This document shows, one piece after another, positions 6,328 through 48,507 of a stretch of DNA of 64,000 bases. Every line of letters starts with the position of its first letter. Position 1 is the stretch's first letter. The translations under genes and the position numbers were made by a program. Source of the DNA: Candidatus Bipolaricaulota bacterium (GTDB taxonomy: Bacteria > Bipolaricaulota > Bipolaricaulia > UBA7950 > UBA9294). The notes beneath the pieces are model-generated. The model ran no database searches. It was not told where the DNA came from and saw only the letters and a list, made by a program, of their open reading frames with translations. The stretch spans positions 13,736 to 77,735 of the forward strand of contig JAHITR010000028.1 of assembly GCA_018817505.1 (NCBI GenBank). The letters run 5' to 3'.

Positions 6328-6342
6328 CTCTAGACGTTCGTG

Positions 6343-23453: not shown

Positions 23454-23960
23454 ATGATGAACAAGAAGAGATGGATCCTTGTCGGGGCGGTTGCCGCTCT
23501 GCTGCTCGTGGTCTTTGTTGGGCGCGGCCTGTTCACGAGCAACGAAGCTGATTACACATACTGGGAACCTGTTCTCAGCCCAGATGGCAGCATGATCGTC
23601 TATGAATCCGTGACTGAGTTGAGCCTTGAGTTGTTCACGATGGATCTAGGCACACAGGCAGTGACGCAGCTGACAAACGATGAATACGCGAATTGGTCAC
23701 CTTCATGGTCCCCTGACGGCAACCGTGTCGCGTTCGCGTCCAGCCGCGACAAGAATGTCGACATTTTCGTGCTCGATGTTCATACTCTTGAGATCACGCG
23801 TCTGACATCGCATTCCGGTGATGATATCAACCCCAGCTGGGGAATCGATGGGGCCATCTATTTCAACTCCAATCGCTCCGAAACCTGGGAAGCCTACTCC
23901 ATCGATCCCGACAGCTTCGTGCTTCGGAAACTAACGTCACTCGACGCGACGAGCCCATGA
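23454..23960 (+). CDS. TolB-like WD40/PD40 beta-propeller repeat protein (short, secreted)
   Basis: ATG at 23454 after an AGGAAGG RBS; signal/TM segment MMNKKRWILVGAVAALLLVVFVG. PD40-like repeats: YESVTE, WSPSWSPDGNRVAFASSRDKNVDIFVLD, INPSWGIDG. Confidence 0.6.
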   Translation: MMNKKRWILVGAVAALLLVVFVGRGLFTSNEADYTYWEPVLSPDGSMIVYESVTELSLELFTMDLGTQAVTQLTNDEYANWSPSWSPDGNRVAFASSRDKNVDIFVLDVHTLEITRLTSHSGDDINPSWGIDGAIYFNSNRSETWEAYSIDPDSFVLRKLTSLDATSP

Positions 23961-24631
23961 GCATTAGTGCAGTGATTCTCGCAGCAGGCCGCGGGGATAG
24001 AATGCAAGCGGGGGGCAACAAAATGCTGCTGCCCCTTGAGGGTCACCCTTTGATCTGTTGGGCTGTGCGCGCATTCGCGCGAATCGATGAAATCGATGAC
24101 CTGATCATCGTTGTACAGGCTCACGAAGCGATGGAGATCCGACGACTCCTCCATCCCATCGCCCCCAATGCGCGGTTCATCGAGGGGGGAGTGACGCGAA
24201 GAGATTCAGCGTTAGCCGGTGTTCGCGCAACTCGCAACGAGTTGGCGTTGATCCATGATGGCGCGAGGCCTTTCCCGTCTGCAGCGCTCATCCACCGCGT
24301 CATTGCCAAGGCGAAAGTCACGGAAGCGGCAATCCCAGTTCTGCAGATCACGGACTTGCTTCATACGCTCGACTCTTCTGGGAGTACAGTCACGCAGTTG
24401 CCACCCTCCATCCCGTTGTTGGCTCGTGCGCAGACACCGCAGGGATTCTATCGTGCTCTCATTCTTCAATGTCTCGAGAACGCACCAGCCGAAATCCGAG
24501 ACGATGCCACTGCCGTCTTATGGACAGGCAGGGCCGTGTCGACCGTCCCTGGCGAAAGCGTGAATGTAAAGATCACCAAGCCGGATGACCTTCTCCTGGC
24601 CGAAGCCATCGCCGCACACTTGGAAGCCTAG
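23957..24631 (+). CDS. ispD: 2-C-methyl-D-erythritol 4-phosphate cytidylyltransferase
   Basis: SAVILAAGRGDRM N-terminus and the IHDGARPF motif; 224 aa. Confidence 0.9.
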   Translation: MSISAVILAAGRGDRMQAGGNKMLLPLEGHPLICWAVRAFARIDEIDDLIIVVQAHEAMEIRRLLHPIAPNARFIEGGVTRRDSALAGVRATRNELALIHDGARPFPSAALIHRVIAKAKVTEAAIPVLQITDLLHTLDSSGSTVTQLPPSIPLLARAQTPQGFYRALILQCLENAPAEIRDDATAVLWTGRAVSTVPGESVNVKITKPDDLLLAEAIAAHLEA

Positions 24632-24705
24632 GCAACTGAACTGTCTCGTTGTCAGATCCTGTGCATCCGGCTAGAATGCGTTATCACCGCGCCAAGGAGG
24701 CTGGT

Positions 24706-25398
24706 ATGATTCGAACCAAAAATCTGTGGTTGGTATTGGGTTTGGTCTTGAGCATGTCGCTCATCACGTTTGCCGCTACTCCATTTACGGAAACGTATGT
24801 TGTGGGTGGCACTGCAGTATGGTTGTTCAACAACACCACTGGAGAGACCGCGAACATTCTCCACCTGGAGTTTGCAGAGGACGTTACGCTCAGCGCGACA
24901 CTGGCAATCGGTGGGCAACTTGTCCCAATGGGCCCACTCACAGGCAAAGTCTTTGACTTCGCTGGATCCATCACCAAGGGCGGAACATTCCAGGTTTATG
25001 TGACCCCAGTCACTGCAGTTCCGGCTCTCGCACAGTGGCTCAAGATGGACGCGGTTGGCAATACCCTTCCGATTGGTTCTCCTTATTTCACGTCGCTCTC
25101 GGTTTTGGGACGACTATTTGGAATCGGTATTGTCGCATTGAGGGAAGCCAATCCAGCAGCTCTTGCTGCAGCATTCGAGCAGTTCTTCGCAGACAATGCG
25201 GATTATTTGGCTGGCCTCTCCGAATCGCTTGGCATGTCGCTTGCAGACTCCTTGATGCCCATTATTATGGCGTCTCCTGCAGAAGGCATCGAGAACTTCT
25301 TCAACACCATCATGGGGATGTTGGGAGTCACCAGTCTTGCTGAAGCCGTTACGGGAAGCGTGAACTGGACCGCCTTGTTTGCAGCGCTCGGGATGTAG
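24706..25398 (+). CDS. secreted hypothetical protein
   Basis: ATG at 24706 after an AAGGAGG RBS; signal peptide MIRTKNLWLVLGLVLSMSLITFAATPF. No recognisable domain. Confidence 0.5.
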   Translation: MIRTKNLWLVLGLVLSMSLITFAATPFTETYVVGGTAVWLFNNTTGETANILHLEFAEDVTLSATLAIGGQLVPMGPLTGKVFDFAGSITKGGTFQVYVTPVTAVPALAQWLKMDAVGNTLPIGSPYFTSLSVLGRLFGIGIVALREANPAALAAAFEQFFADNADYLAGLSESLGMSLADSLMPIIMASPAEGIENFFNTIMGMLGVTSLAEAVTGSVNWTALFAALGM

Positions 25399-25426
25399 AT
25401 CCCTGAAACGATTCGAGATAGCTTTC

Positions 25427-25456
25427 AGAGAAGGGCTTCGGCCCTTCTCTTTTTCT
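25427..25456. terminator. rho-independent terminator hairpin between convergent genes
   Basis: agagaagggc-ttcg-gcccttctct, a perfect 10-bp stem with a 4-nt loop followed by TTTTCT, sitting between the gene ending at 25398 (+) and the one ending at 25472 (-). Confidence 0.65.
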
Positions 25457-25471
25457 ACAGAAGAAGGTTGC

Positions 25472-27742
25472 TTAGGCCGATCGCAGCAATTCCGCGACGG
25501 TGCACGGTTCGAGGGGGTATTTGGTCGCCTGATGGCCCACAGCATGGCTTACAGCACTGGCCACAGCCGCATGAGCAGCCATAAGTGGCACTTCCCCCAA
25601 CCCTTTGGCTCCGAACGGGCCAGCCGAAAACTCGGCTTCAATAAAATCGACGCCCATATCGAGCACCACATCGCGGATCGTGGGTAGCCGATAGGTTGTC
25701 AGCCCGTTCACCATCAGGAACCCGTCCTTCTGGGGAATGTCCTCCATGAGCGCAAATCCTATGCCTTGCGCGACGCCTCCCTGTACCTGGCCCGTGGCCA
25801 ACGTACGATTGAGAATTCGGCCTGAATCGTGGACAGCCACAAAGTCAATGACGTCCGTTTCTCCAGTGACCGTGTCGACCTCAACTTCGGCAATATGGCA
25901 GGCGTACGCATAGACGGGATAGGCGTCTCCCAGGCCCGTCTGCGGATCCCAAGACACCGGTTCTGTCTTGGCCCAGCCTTCGACGGCGGGATCAAGGTTA
26001 TTCAGCCAGAACAAGTTGGCGATTTCGTCCCAACGCTGCCGAATTTCAGAGCGATCCATTCCGTTGCCAAGCGCAACCTCCTCAACACGTTCGCGGAGTT
26101 TCCTGGCTGCATCGAGCACGGCCAGTCCTGACATCATCGTTCCACGCGAAGCAACCGTCGGCCCTGAATCCGGAACGCGTGACGTATCCACAGGCGCCAG
26201 CTGAATTCGCTCGATAGAAACACCGAGCTCTTCTGCAGCAATTTGAAGCAGCGATGTGGTGAGCCCTTGTCCCATTTCCACAGTTCCCACGGCAACGGCA
26301 ACGGAACCGTCAGCTTCTAGCTTCATCGTCGCGCCAGCCTTGTCTAGGAAGGGAGCTTTTCCTCCTAATCCAACACCATACAGAACGCAGGAAATGCCAA
26401 GACCCCGCTTGATGTCGCGGTGTTGCTCATTGAAGGCGGCGATGGCTTCCAGTCGCTGATTCCATTCGACCATCTCTGTCGCACGGGCGAGCGAATCGGC
26501 CATTCCTACACTGGAATCAAGCAGTTGCTCGGTCGACGACCGATCGCCTTCGACAAGCACATTACGTCGTCGTATGTTTGCCCGATCCAAATTCAGCGCC
26601 TCAGCCAGCCGATCCAACTGCGCTTCGTGCGGGAAGATCACTTGCGGGCTTCCGAATCCTCGAAATGCACCATTGGGAACGGTGTTTGTCGCCACTGACT
26701 TAGCATTCACGCGAACATTGGGGATGCGATAGGGGCCTGCTGCCGTGCACAAACTTCGCCACAATACGGCAGAGCTGAGCGTTTGATAGGCACCCGCATT
26801 GAGGATGACATCCACATCAATGGCTGTGATCGTTCCGTCAAACATTGCTCCGGTTCGGTAATGCACACGGGACGGGTGGCGTTTGCTGGTCGTCAATACG
26901 TCTTCTCCGCGATCCAGGACCAGCTTCACAGGACGCCGAGTCTTCCAGGCCATGAGCGCGGCCAAGCTACAGATCTGCGACGGAACGTCTTCCTTGCCAC
27001 CGAATGCTCCTCCTGTCGTGGCCTGGATGACGCGGATCTTGGACATCGGAAGACCGAGCACCACAGAAACGGCCCGCTGCACATAGAATGGACACTGCAT
27101 CGATGCGTAGATGGCCATGCCACCGCCCTCTTCGGGAACAGCAATGGCCCCTTGGGTTTCAATATACGCGTGCTCTTGATAGCCCGTTTCGTAGTCACCC
27201 TCGATGATCACATCTGCTTGGGCAAAACCCGCATCTGCATCGCCCTTGTGCAAGACCATCTCATTAAATAGATTACCGCCCCCCTCAGCCGCAGCTTCAA
27301 GCGAGACGATGACGGGGGAATCAGAGCGAAGTGCCTCCACAGGATCGCTCACCACAGGCAATTCCTCATACGTGATCTTCATGCCCTCGGCTGCTTGCTT
27401 GGCCACTTTGCGGCTCGTTGCCGCGATAAGGGCCACGGGTTCGCCCACGTAGCGAACCACATCGCAAGCAAGCGCTGGCTGGTCATCGTAGATGACGTGA
27501 ACGACATTCTTGCCAGGCACGTCCTCATGGGTCACCAGACAACTCACATCCGGGTGAGAGAATGCTGACGCGAGATCCACGTGCATGACCTTGGCATGCG
27601 GAAGTGGACTGCGGACAACCCATCCATGGAGCATTCCGGGAAACGCGAGATCATCGACGTACTTCGCGTCACCGCGTACTTTGTCTACTGCGTCAGGACG
27701 CGATAGCCCAGCTCCAATCAGGGTTGTCCGCATGTGCGTCAT
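25472..27742 (-). CDS. xanthine dehydrogenase / aldehyde oxidase family molybdopterin-binding large subunit (stand-alone, no FeS or FAD domain)
   Basis: 756 aa. An N-terminal a/b-hammerhead region leads into the Mo-binding domains. Motifs: TTGGAFGGKED and PNGAFRGFGSPQ. The C-terminal motif reads ATGQVQGGVAQGIG where XDH has GQVEGAFVQGLG. Stop/start abutment with the carbamoyltransferase gene ending at 27745. Confidence 0.88.
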   Translation of the reverse strand: MTHMRTTLIGAGLSRPDAVDKVRGDAKYVDDLAFPGMLHGWVVRSPLPHAKVMHVDLASAFSHPDVSCLVTHEDVPGKNVVHVIYDDQPALACDVVRYVGEPVALIAATSRKVAKQAAEGMKITYEELPVVSDPVEALRSDSPVIVSLEAAAEGGGNLFNEMVLHKGDADAGFAQADVIIEGDYETGYQEHAYIETQGAIAVPEEGGGMAIYASMQCPFYVQRAVSVVLGLPMSKIRVIQATTGGAFGGKEDVPSQICSLAALMAWKTRRPVKLVLDRGEDVLTTSKRHPSRVHYRTGAMFDGTITAIDVDVILNAGAYQTLSSAVLWRSLCTAAGPYRIPNVRVNAKSVATNTVPNGAFRGFGSPQVIFPHEAQLDRLAEALNLDRANIRRRNVLVEGDRSSTEQLLDSSVGMADSLARATEMVEWNQRLEAIAAFNEQHRDIKRGLGISCVLYGVGLGGKAPFLDKAGATMKLEADGSVAVAVGTVEMGQGLTTSLLQIAAEELGVSIERIQLAPVDTSRVPDSGPTVASRGTMMSGLAVLDAARKLRERVEEVALGNGMDRSEIRQRWDEIANLFWLNNLDPAVEGWAKTEPVSWDPQTGLGDAYPVYAYACHIAEVEVDTVTGETDVIDFVAVHDSGRILNRTLATGQVQGGVAQGIGFALMEDIPQKDGFLMVNGLTTYRLPTIRDVVLDMGVDFIEAEFSAGPFGAKGLGEVPLMAAHAAVASAVSHAVGHQATKYPLEPCTVAELLRSA

Positions 27743-27744
27743 GC

Positions 27745-28767
27745 TTACAGACGCCCTCCCATGGTGAGGGTCATGATCGCCTTCTGAGTATGCAGTCGGT
27801 TCTCTGCTTGGTCATAAATCCACGACAGATCGTTGTCGCAGACATCAGGCATGGCCTCATGTCCTCGATCTACTGGCATGCACTGGAGTAGATGCCCGGG
27901 ACTGGTAAGCGCCTGCTTTTCAGCGGTGTAGCACCAGTTCTTGTACTTGAGGGCAATCTCGTGCTCCTTCTCTTTGCCAATATCGTATCGATCCTTGGTG
28001 AACCAATTGCGCGGGAAGACGACCGTGGCACCAGCAAGAGCTTTGTCCAAATCGTTCTCCACCGTGAATTGGCCCCCAGTCTGCTTGGCCAAATCCCGGC
28101 ACTGCTGCATGACGTTGGGATCCATGTCATACTCCGGCGGATGGGCAACAACAACGTCCATGCCGTACATCGACGAAATCAGTGCCGTTCCCTGAACAGA
28201 GCAGAGACCGCGGATCCACGGCGTGTAGGCCCACATAATGACAATCTTCCTTCCCTTGACCTTGCCTTCCAGTTTTTCGTGCATGGTGTAGATGTCTGTC
28301 AGCGACTGGCAGGGATGGTTGATGTCTGATGCCATGTTGATGACGGGAACGCCGGCATGTTCGCCGAACATTCTCATCACTTGGTCGCCAAAGCCGTAAT
28401 GGTCGATGGCGTCATCGAGCAGACGAATACCAATACCATCGCAGAACCGAGCCATCGCCTTGGCGGTATCCTTGACGGTTTCGCCGGCTCCTGGCTTGTC
28501 TTCGAGAGAGATGCGCATGGTCGACGGGTTGAGGAACTGGGCATGTCCGCCCAATTGTGTCATACCCGTTTCAAAAGACATCCGCGTGCGCGTCGATCCG
28601 GCAAAGAACAGCATGGCGAACGTCTTGTCTTCGAGAGTGTGATGCGGTTTCCTGCTGTAGTAGGCACCCTTCAGCTGATCCGTGACCTTCATCGCGATAT
28701 CGTACTCTTCGCGCGTCCAGTCAATCTCGCTGATGAGATTGCGACCTGCTAGATCAAACCAGCTCAT
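27745..28767 (-). CDS. YgeW-like knotted carbamoyltransferase, paralog B (divergent)
   Basis: ATG at 28765-28767 (MSWFDL) after an AGGAGG RBS. Carbamoyl-phosphate binding STRTR (FAGSTRTRMSF), HPCQ (HPCQSLTD), an IMWAYTPW block, and LLQCMPVDRG in place of the HCLPA motif. Confidence 0.8.
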   Translation of the reverse strand: MSWFDLAGRNLISEIDWTREEYDIAMKVTDQLKGAYYSRKPHHTLEDKTFAMLFFAGSTRTRMSFETGMTQLGGHAQFLNPSTMRISLEDKPGAGETVKDTAKAMARFCDGIGIRLLDDAIDHYGFGDQVMRMFGEHAGVPVINMASDINHPCQSLTDIYTMHEKLEGKVKGRKIVIMWAYTPWIRGLCSVQGTALISSMYGMDVVVAHPPEYDMDPNVMQQCRDLAKQTGGQFTVENDLDKALAGATVVFPRNWFTKDRYDIGKEKEHEIALKYKNWCYTAEKQALTSPGHLLQCMPVDRGHEAMPDVCDNDLSWIYDQAENRLHTQKAIMTLTMGGRL

Positions 28768-28845
28768 GCTTCCTCCTTGGAGGCGGCGCTCATCGCGGAG
28801 TTCGTAGCGCTTGACGCTACGAACCCCGCACAATGAATCGCAGCT

Positions 28846-29880
28846 TTACCCCATAATCAGGGCCATCATGCCCTTCTGCGCATGCAGACGGTTGGCGGCC
28901 TCTTCGATAATGACCGAGCTAGGGCCGTCAATGACTTCGTCAGTCACTTCCATATCCCGATCTGCTGGCAAACAATGCATGTAGATGGCGTCATTGGTGA
29001 GCTCCATCTTGTCCTGGGTGCAGATCCAATCCTTGTTCGCCTCAAAGATTTCCTTCGCAGCAGCCTCATCCCATGCGCGACCATCCGTTGCCTGCACAGT
29101 CCAAGCCTTGGGGTAGACAACGACGGCGTCCTTGAATGAGTCATCCATGTCGTGGGAGATCTGGAATGCACCACCATTCTTCTTGGCCAGATCCTTGGTT
29201 GCCTGCAGAATGCGGGGATCAAGATCCAATCCCTTGGGATGAGCCAACGTGACGTCCATGCCCATCATGGCCGCTGAGATGATGGCCGACTGAGGAACAG
29301 CCAGCGGTTTGGCTACTGACCCGGAATAGGCCCAGGACATCACGAATTTCTTGCCCTGCAGGTTGTTGCTGAGCTTCTCCTGCATGGTCATGACGTCTGC
29401 CAATGCCTGGCATGGATGGTAGATGTCGTCTTCCATGTTAATCACGGGGATCTTGGACCATTTGGCAAATTCACGCACAATGCGGTCGCCTTTTCCATAT
29501 TCCCAACCCGTCGGCTTTCCGTAGATGCGGATGGCAATCGCGTCACCCATTTCAGCCAATACTCGTGCAACGTCAGAGATGCGCTCTGTGGAGTAGGCCA
29601 CTTCATCGCCTTTGAGAGCTGGCGTGTAAACGGCACCCGGCTGAAGGAAGTGAGCGTGTCCGCCCATCTGCGTCATGCCAGCCTCGAACGAGTTACGTGT
29701 TCGAAGCGAGGAATTGTAGAACATCATGTGTAGCGTTTGCCCATCGAGCACTTTGTGCGGTTCGCGACGGATGAACTTCCTCTTCAGGTCGTGAGCTGTA
29801 TCAAGCATCGCCTCGATTTCGTCGCGGGAGAAGTCAAGCCACGTAATGAAATCGCGGCCACGAAGTGTTGTACTAGACAT
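28846..29880 (-). CDS. YgeW-like knotted carbamoyltransferase, paralog A
   Basis: AGGAGG RBS before MSSTTLRG. Motifs SLRTR, HPCQALAD, KKFVMSWAYSGSVAKPLAVPQ, MDVTLAHPKG and KDWICTQDKMELTNDAIYMHCLPAD closely follow the E. coli YgeW pattern as I remember it. Confidence 0.82.
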   Translation of the reverse strand: MSSTTLRGRDFITWLDFSRDEIEAMLDTAHDLKRKFIRREPHKVLDGQTLHMMFYNSSLRTRNSFEAGMTQMGGHAHFLQPGAVYTPALKGDEVAYSTERISDVARVLAEMGDAIAIRIYGKPTGWEYGKGDRIVREFAKWSKIPVINMEDDIYHPCQALADVMTMQEKLSNNLQGKKFVMSWAYSGSVAKPLAVPQSAIISAAMMGMDVTLAHPKGLDLDPRILQATKDLAKKNGGAFQISHDMDDSFKDAVVVYPKAWTVQATDGRAWDEAAAKEIFEANKDWICTQDKMELTNDAIYMHCLPADRDMEVTDEVIDGPSSVIIEEAANRLHAQKGMMALIMG

Positions 29881-29897
29881 AGAAATGCCTCCTAAAC

Positions 29898-30854
29898 CTA
29901 ATTCTTGGTAATCGTTGTTCCGGCGTTGCCTTCCAGGGCAGCAACTGCCTGATTGAGAGAGGTGATGATTGCCTTCTCCCCGCCCGCTTCGACAAATCGA
30001 ACGGCCGCTCGAACCTTGGGCTCCATGGAGCCCTTGGCAAAGTGGCCCTCTTCCGCATACTTCTTGGCTTCGGCAACAGTCATCTTCGAGAGGGATTTCT
30101 CGTCCGAAGTCTTGTAATTCAACCGTACACTGTCCACATCCGTGAGAACCATGAAGATCGACGCACCCACGTCGACAGCCAAACGTTCTCCTGCCAGATC
30201 CTTGTCAATGACTGCATCGACGCCAACAAGCTTCCCATCCTCGCGGATGACGGGGATGCCTCCGCCGCCGGAGGCAATGACGATCGCCTTGGCTTCCACG
30301 AGATGTCGGATCGAATCCTTCTCATGAATGGAGATCGGATCTGGCGAAGGCACAACTCGGCGCCAGCCACGGCCCGCGTCCTCACGAACGTTGTAGCCCT
30401 TATCCGATTCCAGGGCCTTGGCTTCGGCTTCAGAATAGAAGGGGCCTACGGGCTTGGTTGGATTGGAGAATGCCGGATCCTGCTTGTCTACGACAACCTG
30501 GGTCACGATGGTAGCGACAGGTATGTCGCCTCGACCCTGCTCTGCAAGCAGATTGCCCAGGTTCTGTTGAATCATGAGGCCGATGAACCCCTGCGATTCG
30601 GCCCCCAAAGCAAACAAAGGCATCGGTGCAGCGACCTCTTTGCCCGCTTCGTTTTGAAGCAGCAGGTTGCCCACCTGAGGTCCGTTGCCATGGGTGACCA
30701 CAACACGATACTTGCCGGACTCCACCATGTGTGCCAACTGCACGCACGTAACATGCACATTGGCCATCTGTTCTTCGTATGTGCCCTTCTGTCCCGGTTG
30801 AAGAATCGCATTGCCACCGAGAGCGACTACTACTGTCTTCTTTCCACCATCCAT
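29898..30854 (-). CDS. arcC: carbamate kinase
   Basis: TVVVALGGNA N-terminus and GGGGIPV motif of the amino-acid-kinase family; 318 aa. Confidence 0.9.
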   Translation of the reverse strand: MDGGKKTVVVALGGNAILQPGQKGTYEEQMANVHVTCVQLAHMVESGKYRVVVTHGNGPQVGNLLLQNEAGKEVAAPMPLFALGAESQGFIGLMIQQNLGNLLAEQGRGDIPVATIVTQVVVDKQDPAFSNPTKPVGPFYSEAEAKALESDKGYNVREDAGRGWRRVVPSPDPISIHEKDSIRHLVEAKAIVIASGGGGIPVIREDGKLVGVDAVIDKDLAGERLAVDVGASIFMVLTDVDSVRLNYKTSDEKSLSKMTVAEAKKYAEEGHFAKGSMEPKVRAAVRFVEAGGEKAIITSLNQAVAALEGNAGTTITKN

Positions 30855-30990
30855 TGGATCACCTTTTCGTACTTCAGTTTTTTAATCTATTCGTTCAGAT
30901 TCGCCACAGCAGATCGGTCTACATGCAACGTCACGATCACCCTCGTCACAGAGGATTTTCGCTCACTGATGGTCAAGAGCAACGCCTGCG

Positions 30991-31698
30991 TCATGCCTCC
31001 CAGATCTCTCGCATGCGATCCCAATGCTCGACCGTCTTGGCAAAGGCCGTATCGGCATCGCGTACCACAATGGCACCAAGTATCTCTTGATGAAGATCCA
31101 CCACATGCTGAATGTCATCCACATTCTTCAGGTAGTAATGCCTGGTGAATTCCCGATACACAAGCTGATCCATGGTGTCCAACAAGGGCGTTAGCGCAGC
31201 AGTAATCAGCGCGTTTCCTACGGCATCGGCCAATTCAGTATGGAATCGTTTGTCCGCATCGAAATAGGCATCAAAGTCGTCTTTGGCTGCATTTTCGCGC
31301 ATATCCTCGATGGACTTGCGCAACCGTGCTACCACTGCGCCCGATGCCTTGGACGCAACCAGAGCCGCAATGGGCGGTTCCAGTACGCCCCGTGCTTCCA
31401 TCACTTCGAGACATCCCATTTCGGATTCAATCAGATGGACTGCGGCAGTTTCATCGGAGGAACTGGGCTTACGCATGACGTAGTTGCCGCTTCCCGGACG
31501 GGATTCAATAATCGACATCGCTTGCAGCGCAGACAATGCTTCCCGGATGGATGGCCGACTCACACCCATCAATTCAGCCAGCTCGAATTCTGAGGGCAGT
31601 TTGCTGCTCACTGGATAATCGCCACGTTGAATCGCATCCACGATCTGCTCAGCAGCAATGGCGCTTACCTTGCGAGGTCGAACCTTCTTGAAAGACAT
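30991..31698 (-). CDS. GntR-family transcriptional regulator (FadR/FCD subfamily)
   Basis: N-terminal wHTH (LPSEFELAELMGVSRPSIREAL) and a C-terminal all-helical FCD-like domain. AGGAGG RBS. Confidence 0.85.
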   Translation of the reverse strand: MSFKKVRPRKVSAIAAEQIVDAIQRGDYPVSSKLPSEFELAELMGVSRPSIREALSALQAMSIIESRPGSGNYVMRKPSSSDETAAVHLIESEMGCLEVMEARGVLEPPIAALVASKASGAVVARLRKSIEDMRENAAKDDFDAYFDADKRFHTELADAVGNALITAALTPLLDTMDQLVYREFTRHYYLKNVDDIQHVVDLHQEILGAIVVRDADTAFAKTVEHWDRMREIWEA

Positions 31699-31775
31699 CC
31701 AGCCTCCTGATGGTATTCCTGTCCCTTGACGTCAACCTGTATGATAGCCTGACGGGTTTGCATCCGCAAAAAACG

Positions 31776-33134
31776 CTAAGGGAGGGCACGGAACAGGAAC
31801 TTCCCGCGACCTTCTTCAGCAAGCAATTCTCCATCCTGAACGATGATCTCGCCTCGAGAGATTGTCGATACGGCCTTGCCTGTCATCTCCCATCCTTCGT
31901 ACGGAGAGAAATCGGTTCTCATGTGCAGGAATGTCGCTTCAATCTCCCACTCCAGAGCCGGATCAAAGATCACCAAGTCCGCGTCCATGCCAATCTCAAT
32001 CGATCCTTTGTGACCATCTAGTCCGTAGATCTGAGCCGGCCCTTCGCTGAGAAGGCGAGGAATGTCCGTCACAGACAGCAATCCCTTCCCCACTCCCTCG
32101 GAGTAGAGAATCGGAAGAAGCGTCTCCACTCCAGGAAGACCATACGGAAGATCCACGAACGACCCTCGCCAGGTCTTTTGCTCGCGCGTAAACGGACAGT
32201 GGTCCGTGGCGACAAAGTCGATCACCCGATTCCTCAATCCGTTCCACAGCATCGTTTGATCCCCCAACGTGCGGAGCGCTGGGCTGGCAGAGAAGAGGTG
32301 TCCATCCATGCGCTCATAGGAATCGGCGCCCAGAACAAGATACTGCGGGCACGTCTCAGCAGTCATCGCTGCTCCTGACTTGCGCGCCTCTTGAACAGCC
32401 ATGATCCCCTTGGCAGAAGAGACGTGCACAATGTGAGTACGACAGCCTGTCTCAGCGGCCGCACGCCCGACCTGTGAGATCGCTGTCGATTCACAGAGTG
32501 CTGGACGCGCCCGCGCCAGGATGGACATGTCCGTCATCTGTTCGGGAGAAAGCGACTCCATGATCGAACGGATCAGATCTTCATCCTCACAATGAACGAG
32601 TGCCACGCAATCCAAGTCCGCCAAATGTTCGAACGCCCGCCGCATAATGGCAGGCGTCGTGCGCCGCCCTGACGACTCATAGGCCGTATAAAACTTGAAG
32701 CTCGTCACTCCGCGTCGCCGAGCTTCTGCAAACTCGCCCGATTCTTCGGGCTTCCACCCAACCACTTCTGCATGCAAGCCCACATCGATAATCGCGGGCT
32801 GGATATTCTCCATCCGTCGATCGATGTCCAGGGGAATCGAAGAACGCAAGGACCCCACCGTAAAGTCAAGAATGCTTGTCACTCCGCCAAACGCGGCAGC
32901 CACAGTCCCCGTGTAGAAATCGTCTGAGGATCGAGTCCCTGCGACGGGGAGATCCATGTGCGTGTGAGCATCGATGACTCCAGGGAACACCAACATTCCG
33001 TCTGCGTCAAGCACACGATGGCCAGACAATGCTGTTCCGAGAGCGGAAATGGTCTCTCCGTCAATCCCAATGTCCAGCTTTTGCGCGGACAGCGGCGTAA
33101 CCACTGTGCCGTTTCGAATGACAAGATCATGCAT
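31776..33134 (-). CDS. cyclic amidohydrolase of the hydantoinase / dihydropyrimidinase / allantoinase family
   Basis: PGVIDAHTHMDLP metal-binding His pair; GTVAAAFGGVTSILDF; a carbamylated-lysine context GVTSFKFYTAY. The start is probably the ATG at 33132-33134 (MHDLVIRNGTVV); the tool start at 33164 is a TTG. Confidence 0.85.
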   Translation of the reverse strand: MHDLVIRNGTVVTPLSAQKLDIGIDGETISALGTALSGHRVLDADGMLVFPGVIDAHTHMDLPVAGTRSSDDFYTGTVAAAFGGVTSILDFTVGSLRSSIPLDIDRRMENIQPAIIDVGLHAEVVGWKPEESGEFAEARRRGVTSFKFYTAYESSGRRTTPAIMRRAFEHLADLDCVALVHCEDEDLIRSIMESLSPEQMTDMSILARARPALCESTAISQVGRAAAETGCRTHIVHVSSAKGIMAVQEARKSGAAMTAETCPQYLVLGADSYERMDGHLFSASPALRTLGDQTMLWNGLRNRVIDFVATDHCPFTREQKTWRGSFVDLPYGLPGVETLLPILYSEGVGKGLLSVTDIPRLLSEGPAQIYGLDGHKGSIEIGMDADLVIFDPALEWEIEATFLHMRTDFSPYEGWEMTGKAVSTISRGEIIVQDGELLAEEGRGKFLFRALP

Positions 33135-33234
33135 AGGATGTCTCGATACCCTTTCAAGATGCAACTTGGAAAGTTGCCAAGCTGCATGATAGCATTACAG
33201 CTACAACTCCACAATCAAATCGAGGTAAAACGCC

Positions 33235-34704
33235 ATGATTGACCTGACGATACACGAAGGCAAGCTTCAGAATACCGTGCGCCGTGCGCGCGAGCGCGGT
33301 ATTGTTATTCCTACGTTCGAGCAGATGAAGAACCCGTCGCTCATTCCCGCAACCGTCAAGGCTGGATTGAAAGCCCACGGCTTGTGGGACCTTCATCCAC
33401 TCAACCTGTATCGCATCACCTGGAAGAACGAGCCCGTTCTTCAAGGCGGCGGCTTTGGCGGCGTCAATTATATCGAATTCCCATCTGCGCTCACGGGCGT
33501 CGACGCTCGCATCATTGCCCTCATCGGCAAGTGGTTCCCAACCGGAGCCCACAAAGTGGGAGCCACATTCGGTTGCCTCGTCCCTCGCTTGGTGACCGGT
33601 CAGTTCGACCCAACGTTCCACAAGGCCGTGTGGCCATCCACAGGAAATTTCTGCCGCGGCGGCGCCTACAACTCGGCACTGCTCGGCTGTGACTCCATTG
33701 CCATCTTGCCCGAGGAGATGTCCAAGGAACGATTTGCATGGTTGTCCAAGGTAGCTGGAGAGGTCATCGCTACACCGGGTTGCGAATCGAATGTTTGGGA
33801 GATTTTTCAGAAGTGCAAAGAGCTGCAAGCGACGCGGGACAACGTCATGATCTTCGACCAATTTGAGGAATTCGGAAACCATCTCTGGCACTACGACGTC
33901 ACTGGACATGCCATGCAAGACGTGCTGAACATCGAGCTCAAGGGCGGCCGATATGCTGGTGTCGTCTTGACCTCAGGATCAGGCGGCACCATGGGCTGTG
34001 GCGATTATCTGAAAGAACAGTATCCCGGCTCCAAGCTCATTGCCTCAGAGGCTCTTCAGTGCCCGACGATGCTTGAGAATGGGTTCGGCGGCCATCGCAT
34101 CGAAGGCATCGGCGACAAGCACATCCCATGGATTCACAACGTTCGGAATACAGACTTCGCGGTCGCCATTGATGACGAGGATCCCATGCACTTGATTCGG
34201 TTGTTCAATGAACCTGAGGGCAAGAAACATCTGCAATCGCTGGGGCTGTCGCCTGCATACGTGGAAGCGCTGGAACAGCTAGGCATCTCTGGCGTGGCCA
34301 ACGTGCTGGCTTCCATCAAATTCGCCAAGTACAACGAGTTGACGAGTTCCGACGTTGTACTCACGGTATTGACCGATTCCATGGAAATGTATGGTACGCG
34401 TCTTCAAGAACTGAATGAGTCCCTGGGGCCCTATACCACGAATCAGGCTGCCATCGATCACAGTCGACACATGCTGGGTCAGAAGACTGACTCCATGCAG
34501 GAATTAGGCTATCGTGATCGAAAGCGCATCCACAACCTGAAGTACTTCACATGGATCGAGCAGATGGGCCGGAGTGTCGCTGAACTCGATCGGCAATGGT
34601 ACGACTACGACGCCTACTGGGGGGGCATTCACAGCATGGTGCCCGCTATTGACAAGTTGATCGTGGAATTCAACGAAGCCGTCGGCCTGGAAGCCAAGCG
34701 CTAA
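33235..34704 (+). CDS. fold-type II (tryptophan-synthase-beta / cysteine-synthase-like) PLP-dependent enzyme, subfamily unknown
   Basis: Candidate PLP-lysine in FPTGAHKVGA. Downstream WPSTGNFCRGGA and LPEEMSKERFAWLSKVAGEV align by eye to the cysteine-synthase core. Long N-terminal extension (about 110 aa); 489 aa total. Confidence 0.7.
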   Translation: MIDLTIHEGKLQNTVRRARERGIVIPTFEQMKNPSLIPATVKAGLKAHGLWDLHPLNLYRITWKNEPVLQGGGFGGVNYIEFPSALTGVDARIIALIGKWFPTGAHKVGATFGCLVPRLVTGQFDPTFHKAVWPSTGNFCRGGAYNSALLGCDSIAILPEEMSKERFAWLSKVAGEVIATPGCESNVWEIFQKCKELQATRDNVMIFDQFEEFGNHLWHYDVTGHAMQDVLNIELKGGRYAGVVLTSGSGGTMGCGDYLKEQYPGSKLIASEALQCPTMLENGFGGHRIEGIGDKHIPWIHNVRNTDFAVAIDDEDPMHLIRLFNEPEGKKHLQSLGLSPAYVEALEQLGISGVANVLASIKFAKYNELTSSDVVLTVLTDSMEMYGTRLQELNESLGPYTTNQAAIDHSRHMLGQKTDSMQELGYRDRKRIHNLKYFTWIEQMGRSVAELDRQWYDYDAYWGGIHSMVPAIDKLIVEFNEAVGLEAKR

Positions 34705-34705
34705 A

Positions 34706-35692
34706 ATGGAACCCGTCTTTGGATCTCCACTCGCGCCGGTCGTTGAACTCATCCGTGCGCAAATGGAGAAACAGAGAAAGAAACAGCCTATCTTGCTCGT
34801 TGGCGGCATCGGATCGGGCAAGACGGCAGCCGGCCTCCGACTTTTGTCCCTGCTTCGCAGCTACGGGATTCAAGTCGGAGGCATTCTTGCTCCCCGCATT
34901 CTCAAGGGAGAGGAGACGATCGGATATTCGATCATCGACCTTGCCACCAATGCGACCCATCCCTTTGCTGGCTTGGAGCCATCGGATGTGCAAATCGGCA
35001 AGTACTACCTGTCCCAAGCCGGATTGGATCTGGCTGAACGAACGATCCGCAACGCCCTCAATGAACGGCCAGTCGTGTTCATCGACGAGGTGGGCCGATT
35101 AGAGCTTGAGGGCGGCGGACACGCACAGGCTATTCGCCAGCTGCTGAAATCCAACAGCGTGCCTGTGCTTCTGGTTCGTGATACGCTTGTTGAACAGGCC
35201 ATTCGCACGTTCGACATTACGAGTCCTTTCATCTTCCACGCTTCTGAAATGCAAGACACCGAAGAAATGGCACCCGGTGGCGCGCAGACGTTTTGGCAGA
35301 TCGTTGATTCCATCCCCTATCCCTTGCTTGTCACCATTAGCTCTCTCGATGGATTTCCTCAGTCACGCCCAATGCACTTGATCGATCACGATGCTCGGAC
35401 GGTATGGTTCGCCACATCCAGAGCATCGAACAAGATCAAGCAGATCGAGGGCAATTCACACGTGACCGTTTTGTTTGTCGATTCGGCCCGCTACAACTAC
35501 GCCGCGTTCCATGGCCATGCCCGTATCGTCGATGACGCCGATCGTGAACGAACGCTTTGGCGCAACGAGTGGGAGGAGGATTGGCCGGAAGGCCCTTCGG
35601 ATCCTGATTATGTTCTCATCCGCATCGACGGCATCCGAGGCCACTTTCTGCGTGGAGCTACGGGTGAGTCTGGTGAAGTCGAATTGGGCTAG
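34706..35692 (+). CDS. fusion protein: N-terminal P-loop NTPase (THEP1/DUF2478-like) and C-terminal pyridoxamine-5'-phosphate-oxidase-like FMN-binding split-barrel
   Basis: Walker A LLVGGIGSGKTAAG and Walker B VVFIDEVGRLE in the first 180 aa. The C-terminus (LLVTISSLDGFPQSRPMHLIDHDARTVWFATSRASNKIKQIEGNSHVTVLF) resembles the PNPOx / general-stress-protein-26 fold. Start is 2 nt after the PLP gene stop. Confidence 0.6.
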   Translation: MEPVFGSPLAPVVELIRAQMEKQRKKQPILLVGGIGSGKTAAGLRLLSLLRSYGIQVGGILAPRILKGEETIGYSIIDLATNATHPFAGLEPSDVQIGKYYLSQAGLDLAERTIRNALNERPVVFIDEVGRLELEGGGHAQAIRQLLKSNSVPVLLVRDTLVEQAIRTFDITSPFIFHASEMQDTEEMAPGGAQTFWQIVDSIPYPLLVTISSLDGFPQSRPMHLIDHDARTVWFATSRASNKIKQIEGNSHVTVLFVDSARYNYAAFHGHARIVDDADRERTLWRNEWEEDWPEGPSDPDYVLIRIDGIRGHFLRGATGESGEVELG

Positions 35693-35896
35693 ATGATTTC
35701 GATCCCACGTGGAGGGTGATTCGGCCGCTCAGCATGACTGGGATTCCCTGCAAGCGTTCAAGTGCAAAGCGCCCTCTCACTGAAGAATGCGGGACACATC
35801 GCTTTGTGAAACTCCGATGCTCTCGTTTCTGTGCCCTGGACTATTCCTCGTATACTCTGCTGGCTCATTCGTTCGTTCTTTGATTGGAGGGATGTC

Positions 35897-37123
35897 ATGG
35901 AGTGGCTGTATCTGGGGATCGGGCTCATCGTCGGGGCGTTTGTCAGTTGGCTGCTCGTTCGCGCCCGCGCTCAAGAAAAAGTGACGACACTGCGTGTCAG
36001 TGCGGCCAAATTGGAGGAAGAACTCCGCGCTGAGCGCGATAAGGCCGCATCGACGGACGTCCTCCAGGATCGAATGAAAGCGATGTTTGAGTCTTTGGCC
36101 CATCAAGCCCTGACATCCAACTCTGAGCAGCTTCTAGCACGCTCTCGTGAGCAGCTGGCCGGTCTCCTGCAGCAAGTCCGTGGCGATTGGGGCACACAAA
36201 AGGAGCAACTCAAGGGCTTGGTCGATCCGCTTAGCAAGGCATTAACGACTATGGATGAGCAGGTGCGTGCCATGGAACAGAAGCGCGAGGGAGCCTATCA
36301 GGGGCTTGGCGAGCAACTGCGCAATTTGGGCGATGCACAGATCCAACTTCGACAATCAACGATTCGGTTGGAGCAATCGCTCAAATCATCGACAGCCCGA
36401 GGACGCTGGGGAGAAATGCAACTGCGCCGCGTCGTCGAACTAGCAGGCATGACCAAGCATGTCGATTTCTCGGAGCAGGTATCAGGCGATCAGGGCCGCC
36501 CTGACATGATCGTCCGACTCCCCAATGAAGGCATTCTGCCAATCGACGCCAAGGCTCCGGCTGCCGCCTATCTGGATGCCATGAATCATGAAGGAGAAGC
36601 TCGCGCGCAGAAGCTGATCGAACATGCCAAAGCGATGCGCTCGCGCATTCAGGAACTATCGCGCAAGGCCTACATGGATCAATTCGAGAAGTCACCAGAG
36701 ATTGTCGTCATGTTCGTCCCGTTTGAATCCGCCTTATCAGCAGCATTCGAAAGCGATCCCGGCCTGCTAGAGTATGGCATCCAGCAGCGCATCCTGGTTG
36801 CTTCGCCAGTGACCTTGTTGGCGCTGCTCCGAGCAGCTGCCTTTGGATGGCAGCAATACCATATCGCAGAGCACGCGCAGCTTATCGCCAACCAGGGGCG
36901 CGAACTCTACACGCGATTTCTCAATGTCATCAAACCCATCGGCGATGCCGGAGACAAGCTCGGCAAAGCAGTCGATGCCTATAACAAGGCCATCAGCTCT
37001 ATTGAGACACGCCTCATGCCAGCACTGAGAAATCTCAAAGATTCGACTGCCGTGTCAGAGGAAGTGCCGGTTCTTGAGCCGCTTGAGCAGAACCCGCGAT
37101 TGCCTCTCGACGACGCACGCTAG
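35897..37123 (+). CDS. rmuC: DNA recombination protein RmuC
   Basis: N-terminal TM helix, a long coiled-coil region, and a conserved C-terminal nuclease-like core (IVVMFVPFESALSAAFESDP). Confidence 0.85.
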   Translation: MEWLYLGIGLIVGAFVSWLLVRARAQEKVTTLRVSAAKLEEELRAERDKAASTDVLQDRMKAMFESLAHQALTSNSEQLLARSREQLAGLLQQVRGDWGTQKEQLKGLVDPLSKALTTMDEQVRAMEQKREGAYQGLGEQLRNLGDAQIQLRQSTIRLEQSLKSSTARGRWGEMQLRRVVELAGMTKHVDFSEQVSGDQGRPDMIVRLPNEGILPIDAKAPAAAYLDAMNHEGEARAQKLIEHAKAMRSRIQELSRKAYMDQFEKSPEIVVMFVPFESALSAAFESDPGLLEYGIQQRILVASPVTLLALLRAAAFGWQQYHIAEHAQLIANQGRELYTRFLNVIKPIGDAGDKLGKAVDAYNKAISSIETRLMPALRNLKDSTAVSEEVPVLEPLEQNPRLPLDDAR

Positions 37124-48435: not shown

Positions 48436-48479
48436 GAAACGACTCCTTCGCTTTTCACCCTGGGTTGACTTCATCAATT

Positions 48480-48507
48480 TTCGACAATCAGTTGCCAAAG
48501 ATTGTCA
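48480..48507. promoter_or_regulatory. imperfect inverted repeat TCGACAAT-n12-ATTGTCAA upstream of the BMP lipoprotein gene (candidate operator)
   Basis: The half-sites match 7 of 8 as reverse complements. The repeat lies about 45-70 nt upstream of the start codon on the minus strand. Confidence 0.25.

Follow-up and report, generated by a model that had tools for sequence, protein, structure and literature searches.

A Bipolaricaulota gene cluster with two transcarbamylases and its probable place in reductive purine catabolism

What does a bacterium degrade with a hydantoinase, a carbamate kinase and two different carbamoyltransferases whose genes stand side by side with that of an orphan molybdenum hydroxylase subunit? 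This question is raised by positions 25472-35692 of a stretch of 64,000 nucleotides (hereafter the window) from Candidatus Bipolaricaulota bacterium (assembly GCA_018817505.1, contig JAHITR010000028.1, positions 13,736 to 77,735). Our analysis favours the answer, which we regard as probable though far from certain, that the cluster belongs to the reductive catabolism of purines and uric acid via 2,8-dioxopurine, and that it provides the "ureide" half of this pathway with a purine-type molybdenum (Mo) hydroxylase attached. The cluster appears to represent a known pathway in altered form rather than unfamiliar chemistry, and its most notable feature is a recurrent, non-orthologous second transcarbamylase (TCase) that appears to swap with the hydrolase YgeY. 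Eight open reading frames make up the cluster:

25472..27742, minus strand: molybdopterin-binding (Mo) subunit of the xanthine dehydrogenase (XDH) family, 756 amino acids (aa)
27745..28767, minus strand: carbamoyltransferase B (TCase B), 340 aa, Pfam OTCace_N and OTCace
28846..29880, minus strand: carbamoyltransferase A (TCase A), 344 aa, Pfam OTCace_N and OTCace
29898..30854, minus strand: carbamate kinase (CK) of the arcC/YqeA type, 318 aa, TIGR00746
30991..31698, minus strand: GntR/FCD transcription regulator within the operon, 235 aa, Pfam GntR and FCD
31776..33134, minus strand: HyuA-like cyclic amidohydrolase of the D-hydantoinase/dihydropyrimidinase family, 452 aa, Pfam Amidohydro_1
33235..34704, plus strand: pyridoxal phosphate (PLP) enzyme of fold type II (PLP-489), 489 aa, Pfam PALP
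34706..35692, plus strand: NTPase_1-PNPOx fusion, 328 aa, Pfam NTPase_1, Pyrid_ox_like and PNPOx_N

All eight reading frames were found exactly as they had first been listed, and they coincide with the gene calls in the public record of the same DNA, a 92-kb contig of an ENA metagenome assembly (ERZ27247128, k141_800848). The proteins TCase A and PLP-489 are 100% identical to NCBI entries for Candidatus Bipolaricaulota bacterium. On the minus strand, the genes are transcribed in the order hydantoinase, GntR/FCD regulator, CK, TCase A, TCase B and Mo subunit, with intergenic gaps of 77, 136, 17, 78 and 2 nt; on the plus strand, only 1 nt separates the two genes, and the NTPase-PNPOx fusion is translationally coupled to the PLP-489 gene. 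TCase B starts with the ATG at 28767, which has a GGAGGA Shine-Dalgarno sequence ahead of it. The coordinates and the close packing on one strand (gaps of 2-136 nt) that had been described in a first-pass annotation of this DNA were thus correct, and its gene families were recovered by our profile searches with NCBIfam and Pfam, for which bit scores are quoted here against the curated cutoffs of the models.

The pathway to which we assign the cluster has been reconstituted in two studies (Li et al. 2025, PMC12507026; Liu et al. 2025, bioRxiv 2025.04.24.650524), so that the earlier description of the chemistry of the corresponding E. coli island as largely unassigned is outdated. Urate is converted to 2,8-dioxopurine by XdhD, and reduction by YgfK or UacX together with ring opening by SsnA yields ureidomethyl-hydantoin. 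HyuA then forms 2,3-diureidopropionate, from which YgeW and phosphate produce carbamoyl phosphate that YqeA uses to make ATP; finally, YgeY hydrolyses the second ureido group, and YgeX generates pyruvate. The formation of ATP from 2,3-diureidopropionate by YgeW and YqeA has been shown experimentally. SsnA is the marker of the uricolytic cluster, and a variant with F420 and LLM has been noted in Chloroflexota by bioinformatics (Li et al. 2025, PMC12507026).

The evidence that ties the window to this pathway comes from related loci, i.e. contigs of metagenome-assembled genomes (MAGs) seen in windows of +/-10 kb, chiefly 80 loci from a genome scan, which were annotated by tblastn with proteins of the window, of the locus L003 and of E. 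coli K-12. Another Bipolaricaulota MAG (L092) has the same eight-gene synteny with a PLP enzyme that is 74% identical, and at least five further lineages share the CK-A-B core; the arrangement is therefore not due to chance. In L003, a locus from Bipolaricaulia, orthologues of CK (71% identical), A (77%), B (60%) and the PLP enzyme (69%) stand at the end of a tightly packed nine-gene operon for a solute-binding protein, an F420 LLM reductase, SsnA, a ThrC-like PLP enzyme, an M20 hydrolase, PLP-488, CK, A and B. The SsnA protein encoded there passes NF005540 (511.8 bits, cutoff 444) and is 36% identical to its E. coli counterpart, and CofE, the NADPH:F420 reductase npdG, a MocA-like gene, XdhC and the selenium-cofactor protein YqeB (TIGR03309, 305 bits, cutoff 220) are found within 10 kb. 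Since orthologous CK, A, B and PLP genes share one operon with the marker of the pathway, the assignment to reductive urate catabolism is supported, and so is the kinship with the ygeW-hyuA-yqeA-xdh island of E. coli that the first-pass annotation had proposed and that is also borne out by the identities of CK to YqeA (46%) and of the hydantoinase to HyuA (36%). The window and L003 are complementary: in the window, L092 and L009, the core is joined by the genes for the hydantoinase and the Mo subunit, and in L003 by those for SsnA and the reductase.

Several further observations concern these relatives. The complete 1.73-Mb Bipolaricaulota genome CP070725.1 (L091, 9615-12820) carries a decayed copy of the cluster, in which TCase A is reduced to a fragment of 88 aa, B is intact, the Mo subunit is shortened to 568 aa, and CK, the regulator and the hydantoinase are absent from the vicinity; this may reflect gene loss or assembly frameshifts. 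Three species-representative MAGs of GTDB with B orthologues of 55-79% identity (L009, L011, L013) are titled "uncultured Thermotogae bacterium" and are probably mislabelled Bipolaricaulota bins. A literature search on Bipolaricaulota with carbamate kinase, xanthine dehydrogenase or hydantoinase gave nothing relevant.

Judged by their sequences, TCases A and B form two new clades within the knotted lineage, with YgeW as their nearest neighbour. They had initially been called YgeW-type (TIGR03316), and this part of the first-pass annotation did not hold: A reaches 163.1 bits and B 114.4 bits with TIGR03316 (cutoff 500), and 172.0 and 115.9 bits, respectively, with NF005538 (cutoff 453). YgeW is defined by longer termini, an extended 240s loop, an 80s loop that is short as in OTCase and carries Gln98, and the pair Q160/K270. 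Membership of A and B in this family was rejected, as both are below the curated cutoffs, form separate clades and have neither the terminal helices nor the extended 240s loop of YgeW: the N-terminal segment has 57 residues as compared to 70 in YgeW, the C-terminal tail 13/16 as compared to 32, and the K252..H293 segment that corresponds to the 240s loop 43 in A and 41 in B as compared to 58, whereas the 80s segment is longer than in YgeW (56/53 residues in A/B versus 47). The substrate pair Q160/K270 of YgeW is E/K in A and A/R in B. TCase A keeps five of the seven proposed residues of the second-substrate pocket of YgeW (K203, K270, D334, E344, S/G200), of which N-acetylornithine transcarbamylase (AOTCase) has only one or two, and its Pro-rich loop WAYSGSVAKPLAVPQS resembles WAYSPSYGKPLSVPQG of YgeW, with KPL(A/S)VPQ in common. 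The pocket of TCase B is related yet distinct, with R203, R270, W200, an Ala at the Glu/Gln position and [HQ][CV]MP instead of HCLP.

In both enzymes the carbamoyl phosphate sites are intact (SxRT, the conserved Arg, HPxQ and the C-terminal Arg). The motifs of A are SLRT, HPCQ and HCLP, with E144 and K252 at the AOTCase positions, and those of B are STRT, HPCQ and QCMP (HCMP or HVMP in relatives), with Ala at position 144 and Arg at 252. Both have an extended 120s loop (R112..H148, 36 residues in A and 35 in B versus 26 in OTCase) and the Pro-rich-loop insertion, which contains KPLAVPQ in A and a single Pro in B, and both lack the DxxxSMG motif of OTCase, in the place of which A has PKAWTVQ and B PRNWFTK. 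The AlphaFold2 model of B (pLDDT 87.4) matches AOTCase 3kzk best among PDB structures (TM 0.89, 1.9 A). With the profile models, A passes the AOTCase model NF003384 (318.9 bits, cutoff 288), and B remains under every NCBIfam cutoff (AOTCase 235.8/288, OTCase 216.8/281, YgeW 114/500); the scores with the OTCase model TIGR00658 (cutoff 280.85) are 236.6 for A and 216.8 for B. The public (PGAP) name of A, N-acetylornithine transcarbamylase, is nevertheless probably wrong: position 77 aligns with Leu or Thr and not with Trp, position 185 is Pro rather than Asn, position 302 is Glu rather than Lys, and the place of Glu92 is taken by a gap, or by Thr with a Glu only at 93. The corresponding residues of B are Ile77, Gly185 and Glu302. 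The short YgeW-like enzymes described below nearly pass NF003384 as well (278.8/288 for Thermoflexus), and it follows that TCases of catabolic purine pathways are named N-acetylornithine carbamoyltransferase in public genomes.

The position of the two enzymes was further assessed in a neighbour-joining tree with few references, which had no SOTCase, PTCase or UGTCase and an AOTCase reference rebuilt from PDB alignments. In this tree, A joined the YgeW group in 71 of 100 bootstraps and the Xanthomonas AOTCase in none, A and B together grouped with YgeW in 82, and the short YgeW-like enzymes with E. coli YgeW in 93. The tie of the two clades to YgeW is thus only moderate. The A clade (99% support), which branches as the sister group of YgeW and the short YgeW-like enzymes taken together, includes one sequence from a Promethearchaeota MAG; the B clade has 100% support. 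B orthologues of at least 55% identity were confined to Bipolaricaulota loci in a scan of one genome for each of 185,579 species. The archaeal sequence (L019, JBHLPQ010000124.1, 2368-9900) is 57% identical to A, and its contig also carries SsnA-like (36%) and ThrC-like genes, which may point to inter-domain transfer or to contamination of the bin. The first-pass annotation had named a grouping of the TCases with the anabolic enzymes OTCase and ATCase and an arginine deiminase operon as findings that would refute its reading; the TCases showed no such grouping, and the reading frames scanned gave no sign of an arginine deiminase context. A TCase gene next to a carbamate kinase gene is a marker of catabolic enzymes; in the window, 17 nt separate the CK stop from the start of A, CK lies directly upstream of A in every related locus, and the order CK-A-B is conserved in the relatives.

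Why should such a cluster contain two TCases? A possible answer is offered by loci of Chloroflexota, Actinomycetota, Sumerlaeota and Verrucomicrobia, which encode a short (~325 aa) YgeW-like TCase together with CK, a ThrC-like enzyme, a PLP-489 homologue (40-66% identical), SsnA (41-46%), npdG and CofE, and often also with XdhD (36-42%), YgfK, a HyuA-like hydantoinase and Fe-S/FAD subunits. The cluster of Thermoflexus sp. (L018) begins with a gene for the urate-producing 8-oxoguanine deaminase (5984-7360; NF006055, 722.5 bits, cutoff 532), which suggests that oxidised guanine is the entry substrate there. A true YgeX was found in none of these loci (L014-L043), where ThrC-like and CysK-like PLP enzymes are conserved instead. 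The gene adjoining the short YgeW-like TCase in 28 loci encodes YgeY in seven cases, a second TCase in 15, both in one and neither in five. The YgeY orthologues are 36-53% identical to the E. coli protein, and the second TCase belongs to pseudo-ATCase group 2 as defined by Barba et al., with the motifs STRT/HPTQ/HSLP. From this near-exclusive alternation we conclude that the second TCase probably replaces the hydrolysis by YgeY with a phosphorolysis, so that both ureido groups would be kept as carbamoyl phosphate. The two-TCase layout of the Bipolaricaulota, in which the second enzyme B is not orthologous to that of the other phyla, indicates that the pairing has been selected for.

The other proteins of the cluster fit into the pathway to different degrees. 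CK, which passes TIGR00746 (435.5 bits, cutoff 358.25), can be regarded as a bona fide carbamate kinase on the strength of its sequence. The hydantoinase is slightly below the cutoff of the D-hydantoinase/dihydropyrimidinase model TIGR02033 (368.6 bits, cutoff 393.25), has the D-hydantoinase 1yny as its best PDB match (290 bits) and conserves all metal ligands of HyuA (DAHTH, the presumably carboxylated Lys of SFKFY, VHCE, VHVS and TDHC). The GntR/FCD regulator is kept upstream of CK in L006-L008, L013 and L092.

The Mo subunit consists of the domains Ald_Xan_dh_C (PF01315, hammerhead), MoCoBD_1 (PF02738) and MoCoBD_2 (PF20256), with no Fe-S/FAD domain. Its best NCBIfam matches are pucD (542 bits) and xdhB (506 bits), the cutoffs of pucD, xdhB and XdhA not being reached, and its best PDB matches are the human and bovine xanthine oxidoreductases (XOR, 363 bits). 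It keeps the equivalents of Q768, E803, R881, R913, F915 and E1262 of human XOR; in bovine numbering, the purine-type residues E1261, E802, R880, Q767 and F914 are conserved, and F1009 is not. The protein is thus a probable catalytic subunit of a purine hydroxylase or dehydroxylase. We rejected it as an XdhD orthologue, since it has neither the N-terminal Fe-S domain nor the 11-aa E606 insertion (TIGR03313, 257.7 versus 1101.9 bits). That the subunit is an orphan, as stated in the first-pass annotation, proved to be true of the whole window: no reading frame with an XDH-type 2Fe-2S motif was detected by a regular-expression search, and no XdhB, XdhC or YgfM homologue by tblastn. The adjacency of the Mo subunit and TCase B genes is kept in L009 (70% identity), L091 and L092. 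In none of the Bipolaricaulota loci does a gene for an Fe-S/FAD partner adjoin that of the Mo subunit; in Chloroflexota and Actinomycetota, XdhB- and XdhC-like genes adjoin Mo subunits in many cases.

PLP-489 belongs, as far as its sequence tells, to a small uncharacterised family with a distant relationship to CysK and CBS: among 1.84 billion cluster representatives, no more than 319 reach E<=1e-30, the match to Pfam PALP is limited to residues 129-326, and the best named family is cysK with 88.7 bits (cutoff 351). Among 32 homologues, neither the putative Schiff-base Lys107 (PTGAHKVGAT) nor the TSGSGGT loop varies. Homologues of 40-69% identity adjoin CK, TCase and SsnA genes in L003, L013, L015, L017, L018, L020, L023, L029, L031-L034 and L036-L038. 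PLP-489 is a conserved partner of the CK/TCase module and a candidate 2,3-diaminopropionate lyase analogous to YgeX. An orthologue of YgeX it is not, as BLASTP gave no match to the E. coli protein at E<=1e-3. The AlphaFold2 model of PLP-489 is poor (pLDDT 60.7), and a fold search only repeated the similarity to CysK and CBS. The protein encoded by the coupled gene combines a THEP1-type P-loop NTPase (residues ~28-166) with a PNPOx-like split barrel of the FMN/F420-binding type (~194-312). The fusion is conserved in L092; in L003 (13991-14518), NTPase_1 stands alone beside npdG and CofE, and in L006 (16980-17612) it is fused to DUF2478. The PNPOx domain was also considered as the missing dearomatising reductase, and we found nothing in favour of this idea beyond a weak match to the F420-PPOX model TIGR03618 (38.6 bits, cutoff 79).

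Taken together, these assignments suggest the following scheme. The Mo subunit would team up with Fe-S/FAD proteins whose genes lie elsewhere and interconvert purines with urate or 2,8-dioxopurine, and an F420-dependent LLM reductase and SsnA, known from the operon of L003 and expected outside the window in this organism, would carry out the reductive dearomatisation and the opening of the pyrimidine ring. By homology, the HyuA-like hydantoinase would then convert ureidomethyl-hydantoin to 2,3-diureidopropionate. Comparative genomics suggests that A, with its YgeW-like pocket, and B each phosphorolyse one ureido group of this compound, B taking over the step that YgeY performs by hydrolysis in E. 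coli. CK would turn each carbamoyl phosphate into ATP, ammonia and CO2, so that up to two ATP rather than one may be gained per purine, and PLP-489 might take the place of YgeX in forming pyruvate and ammonia from 2,3-diaminopropionate. The GntR/FCD protein would regulate the divergent promoters. The sequence of ring opening, phosphorolysis by a TCase and ATP formation by CK had already been proposed in the first-pass annotation and holds; the replacement of allantoate amidohydrolase or beta-ureidopropionase, which it had put forward as well, is not the best frame, as the comparative data point to intermediates of the 2,3-diureidopropionate type.

Not all parts of this scheme are equally secure. 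We propose only tentatively that both ureido groups of 2,3-diureidopropionate are converted to carbamoyl phosphate, with a yield of two ATP per urate. The same caution applies to the more detailed picture, which is conceivable but which we would not call probable: here, the job of YgeY would have passed to two independently recruited TCase lineages, in Bipolaricaulota to clade B and in Chloroflexota and Actinomycetota to pseudo-ATCase group 2, A and B would act as regiospecific phosphorylases of the 2-ureido and the 3-ureido group, and PLP-489 would represent a new class of diaminopropionate lyases. The idea that B replaces YgeY is weakened by the fact that Bipolaricaulota relatives often carry, along with A and B, an M20 hydrolase of the ArgE/DapE type that is 24-27% identical to YgeY (L003, L010, L011, L013). 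Several other points weigh against the assignment to reductive purine catabolism. The Mo subunit is XdhA-like and not XdhD-like, generic dihydropyrimidinases are just as close to the hydantoinase, and the bootstrap support that joins A to YgeW is only 71% in a tree without the three families named above; moreover, the regiochemistry of YgeW itself is disputed between the two 2025 studies. Genes for SsnA, a reductase (YgfK, UacX, LLM), YgeY, YgeX, XdhC, YqeB and an Fe-S/FAD subunit as well as selenium-cofactor genes are absent from the 64-kb window; for SsnA and YgeY, whose lack had been noticed within the cluster, tblastn confirmed this across the entire window. The pathway may therefore be incomplete in this organism.

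An energy-conserving reductive catabolism of pyrimidines might be considered instead. The amidohydrolase would then be a dihydropyrimidinase, in keeping with its best NCBIfam match, TIGR02033, A and B would phosphorolyse N-carbamoyl-beta-alanine and N-carbamoyl-beta-aminoisobutyrate, which would fit a uracil and a thymine branch, and CK would make ATP; the review by Shi et al. raises this possibility explicitly and speculates on a "catabolic beta-alanine transcarbamylase". We regard this route as improbable. A reductase of the PydA/DPD type was not found by the profile scans in and near the cluster, which did not extend to the first ~13 kb of the window, the transcription unit includes a gene for a Mo hydroxylase of the purine type, beta-alanine gives a PLP enzyme of fold type II nothing to do, and the pocket of A resembles the site of YgeW, which is of the alpha-amino-acid type. 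Moreover, the relatives link the module to the purine genes SsnA, YgeY, XdhD, YgfK, 8-oxoguanine deaminase and YqeB.

Another cyclic ureide, such as a 5-substituted hydantoin, an N-methylhydantoin/creatinine derivative or hydantoin-5-propionate, could also be fermented: the hydantoinase would open the ring, the TCases would free carbamoyl phosphate from an N-carbamoyl amino acid, and the PLP enzyme would use the amino acid. This generic logic suits any N-carbamoyl-alpha-amino acid, D-hydantoinases are the best solved relatives of the amidohydrolase, and genes for sarcosine-oxidase-like, creatinase_N/M24 and proline racemase proteins lie less than 10 kb from the core in L006 and L092. However, the idea gives no reason for two TCases and leaves unexplained both the adjacency of the Mo hydroxylase (L009, L091, L092) and the recurrent linkage to SsnA and the F420 reductase, so that we have little confidence in it. 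The neighbouring genes, which include an ornithine cyclodeaminase gene (L006-L008, 17616-21032; L092, 15143-20214), hint in these two lineages at an adjoining catabolism of amino acids or of creatinine-type compounds.

The fermentation of allantoin and allantoate is an even less probable explanation. It would require that the amidohydrolase acts as an allantoinase, that one TCase resembles ureidoglycine carbamoyltransferase (allantoate plus phosphate) and the other is the long-sought oxamate transcarbamylase of the transferase type (oxalurate plus phosphate), and that CK makes ATP. Allantoate does carry two ureido groups, the amidohydrolase matches the allantoinase model TIGR03178 (285 bits, cutoff 358), and there is a precedent in the UGTCase of Rubrobacter, whose gene is next to those for carbamate kinase and allantoinase. 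Yet A and B are outside the UGTCase/pseudo-ATCase group, their HxLP motif being HCLP or QCMP and not H[TS]LP or HPLA, scans at and around the cluster revealed no uricase, HIU hydrolase, OHCU decarboxylase or ureidoglycolate dehydrogenase, and the relatives tie the module to reductive genes of the SsnA type. Bipolaricaulota are, in addition, an anaerobic phylum, which does not suit this route. Finally, a role in arginine metabolism, with A as an anabolic N-acetylornithine or N-succinylornithine transcarbamylase and B, or A, serving with CK in a route like that of arginine deiminase, can be dismissed as most unlikely even though A passes NF003384, bears the corresponding PGAP name and has AOTCase as its closest solved structure, since A has none of the residues W77, N185 and K302 that define AOTCase and never grouped with it in the tree, both TCases are devoid of the OTCase motif, no arg genes or arcA occur within +/-10 kb in the related loci or in the neighbourhood in the window, and the adjacency to carbamate kinase marks catabolic enzymes.

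If the assignment to reductive purine catabolism is correct, the anaerobic urate pathway reaches beyond gut bacteria into deep-branching uncultured phyla of the subsurface and of digesters, i.e. Bipolaricaulota, Chloroflexota and possibly Asgard archaea. Double phosphorolysis, if true, would double the substrate-level ATP obtained from purines, which matters to energy-starved fermenters that live on nucleic acids of necromass. The two dedicated TCases would then be a natural experiment on the question of which ureido group is attacked by YgeW-type enzymes. In addition, three uncharacterised enzyme clades (A, B and PLP-489) gain concrete candidate substrates, and a systematic misannotation as "N-acetylornithine carbamoyltransferase", "ornithine carbamoyltransferase" or "cysteine synthase" becomes apparent.

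Two non-coding elements concern the regulation and the limits of the transcription units:

33135..33234, no strand: divergent promoter region
25427..25450, no strand: GC-rich hairpin with a 10-bp stem between the stop of the Mo subunit gene and the convergent upstream gene, from a terminator scan and the sequence

An alignment with L092 shows that the 15-nt block CTGCATGATAGCATT (33182-33196) is the sole conserved part of the divergent spacer. On the minus strand it reads TGCTATCAT, is located ~47 nt upstream of the hydantoinase ATG and looks like an extended -10 region for the minus-strand operon. A perfect 7-bp palindrome, GCAACTTggaAAGTTGC at 33161-33177, is specific for the window. The hairpin is the probable end of the transcription unit; its T-tract is on the plus strand only, and termination on the minus strand may be assumed. 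A sigma-70 promoter scan remained at chance level (6 sites, 5.8 expected), terminator-like sites, of which there are 13 against an expectation of 10.1, were no more frequent than by chance, with none in the intergenic gaps of the operon, the three intergenic spacers have no inverted repeats of at least 10 nt, and Rfam revealed no riboswitch or other RNA family in the region 24000-37000. The GC content of about 55% is even across the window, and Pfam scans of both flanks identified only housekeeping genes around the cluster, among them RecG, Def, Fmt, IspD, RmuC, MFS and ABC-2. The IspD-like gene at 23957-24631 was considered as MocA and rejected, as it encodes a genuine IspD (173 bits). A gene for an ABC substrate-binding protein of the PnrA/Bmp family (nucleoside-binding type) lies ~12 kb off the cluster (47263-48498); a Bmp gene also follows YqeB in L003.

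How does the cluster compare to known systems? The urate cluster of E. coli and Clostridium comprises xdhD-ygfM, ygfK, ssnA, hyuA, ygeW, yqeA, ygeY and ygeX (PMC12507026; bioRxiv 2025.04.24.650524). Both clusters have the hydantoinase, CK and, encoded next to the kinase, a TCase from the knotted lineage, they share a Mo enzyme of the XDH family and a PLP enzyme of fold type II, and relatives of the window have SsnA and YqeB in the same locus. In contrast, the window has two TCases of which neither is of the YgeW family, no orthologue of YgeY or YgeX, an XdhA-like Mo subunit without Fe-S/FAD partners, a GntR regulator in place of sigma54-YgeV and the extra NTPase-PNPOx fusion, and SsnA and the reductase are encoded outside of it. 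The closest solved structure to the TCases, AOTCase of Xanthomonas campestris (PDB 3kzc and others), shares with them the length class, the long 80s loop, the extended 120s loop, the Pro-rich-loop insertion and, in the case of A, E144 and K252, whereas W77, N185 and K302 are not conserved, E92 is not found at the aligned position, the genomic context is catabolic, and the tree does not group them. The UGTCase and carbamate kinase of Rubrobacter xylanophilus (Barba et al. 2013) are similar in that a purine-derived diureide, allantoate, is phosphorolysed to feed the kinase; however, this single TCase is from another branch (HPLA) and acts in an oxidative context with uricase. In Nocardioides sp. 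JS614, pseudo-ATCase group 2 is encoded beside a ygeW homologue, xdhABC and hyuA, a pair of TCases that Barba et al. (2013, PMC4016543) noted and to which they assigned no function. Two adjoining TCase genes with XDH and hydantoinase genes are thus found there as in the window, and L038 has the JS614 layout, but the second TCase of JS614 is from the ATCase branch and not from clade B. Li et al. (2025, PMC12507026) classed genes by Pfam only (PF00185, PF00291), so that these TCases and their duplication were not told apart. The F420 variant of Chloroflexota resembles L003, which likewise has the LLM F420 reductase, SsnA, npdG and CofE, the ThrC-like and PLP-489-like enzymes, CK and the two-TCase layout. 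The difference lies in the pair itself: a short YgeW-like TCase is combined with pseudo-ATCase group 2 (HSLP) in Chloroflexota and Actinomycetota, whereas A and B, both knotted, form the pair in Bipolaricaulota.

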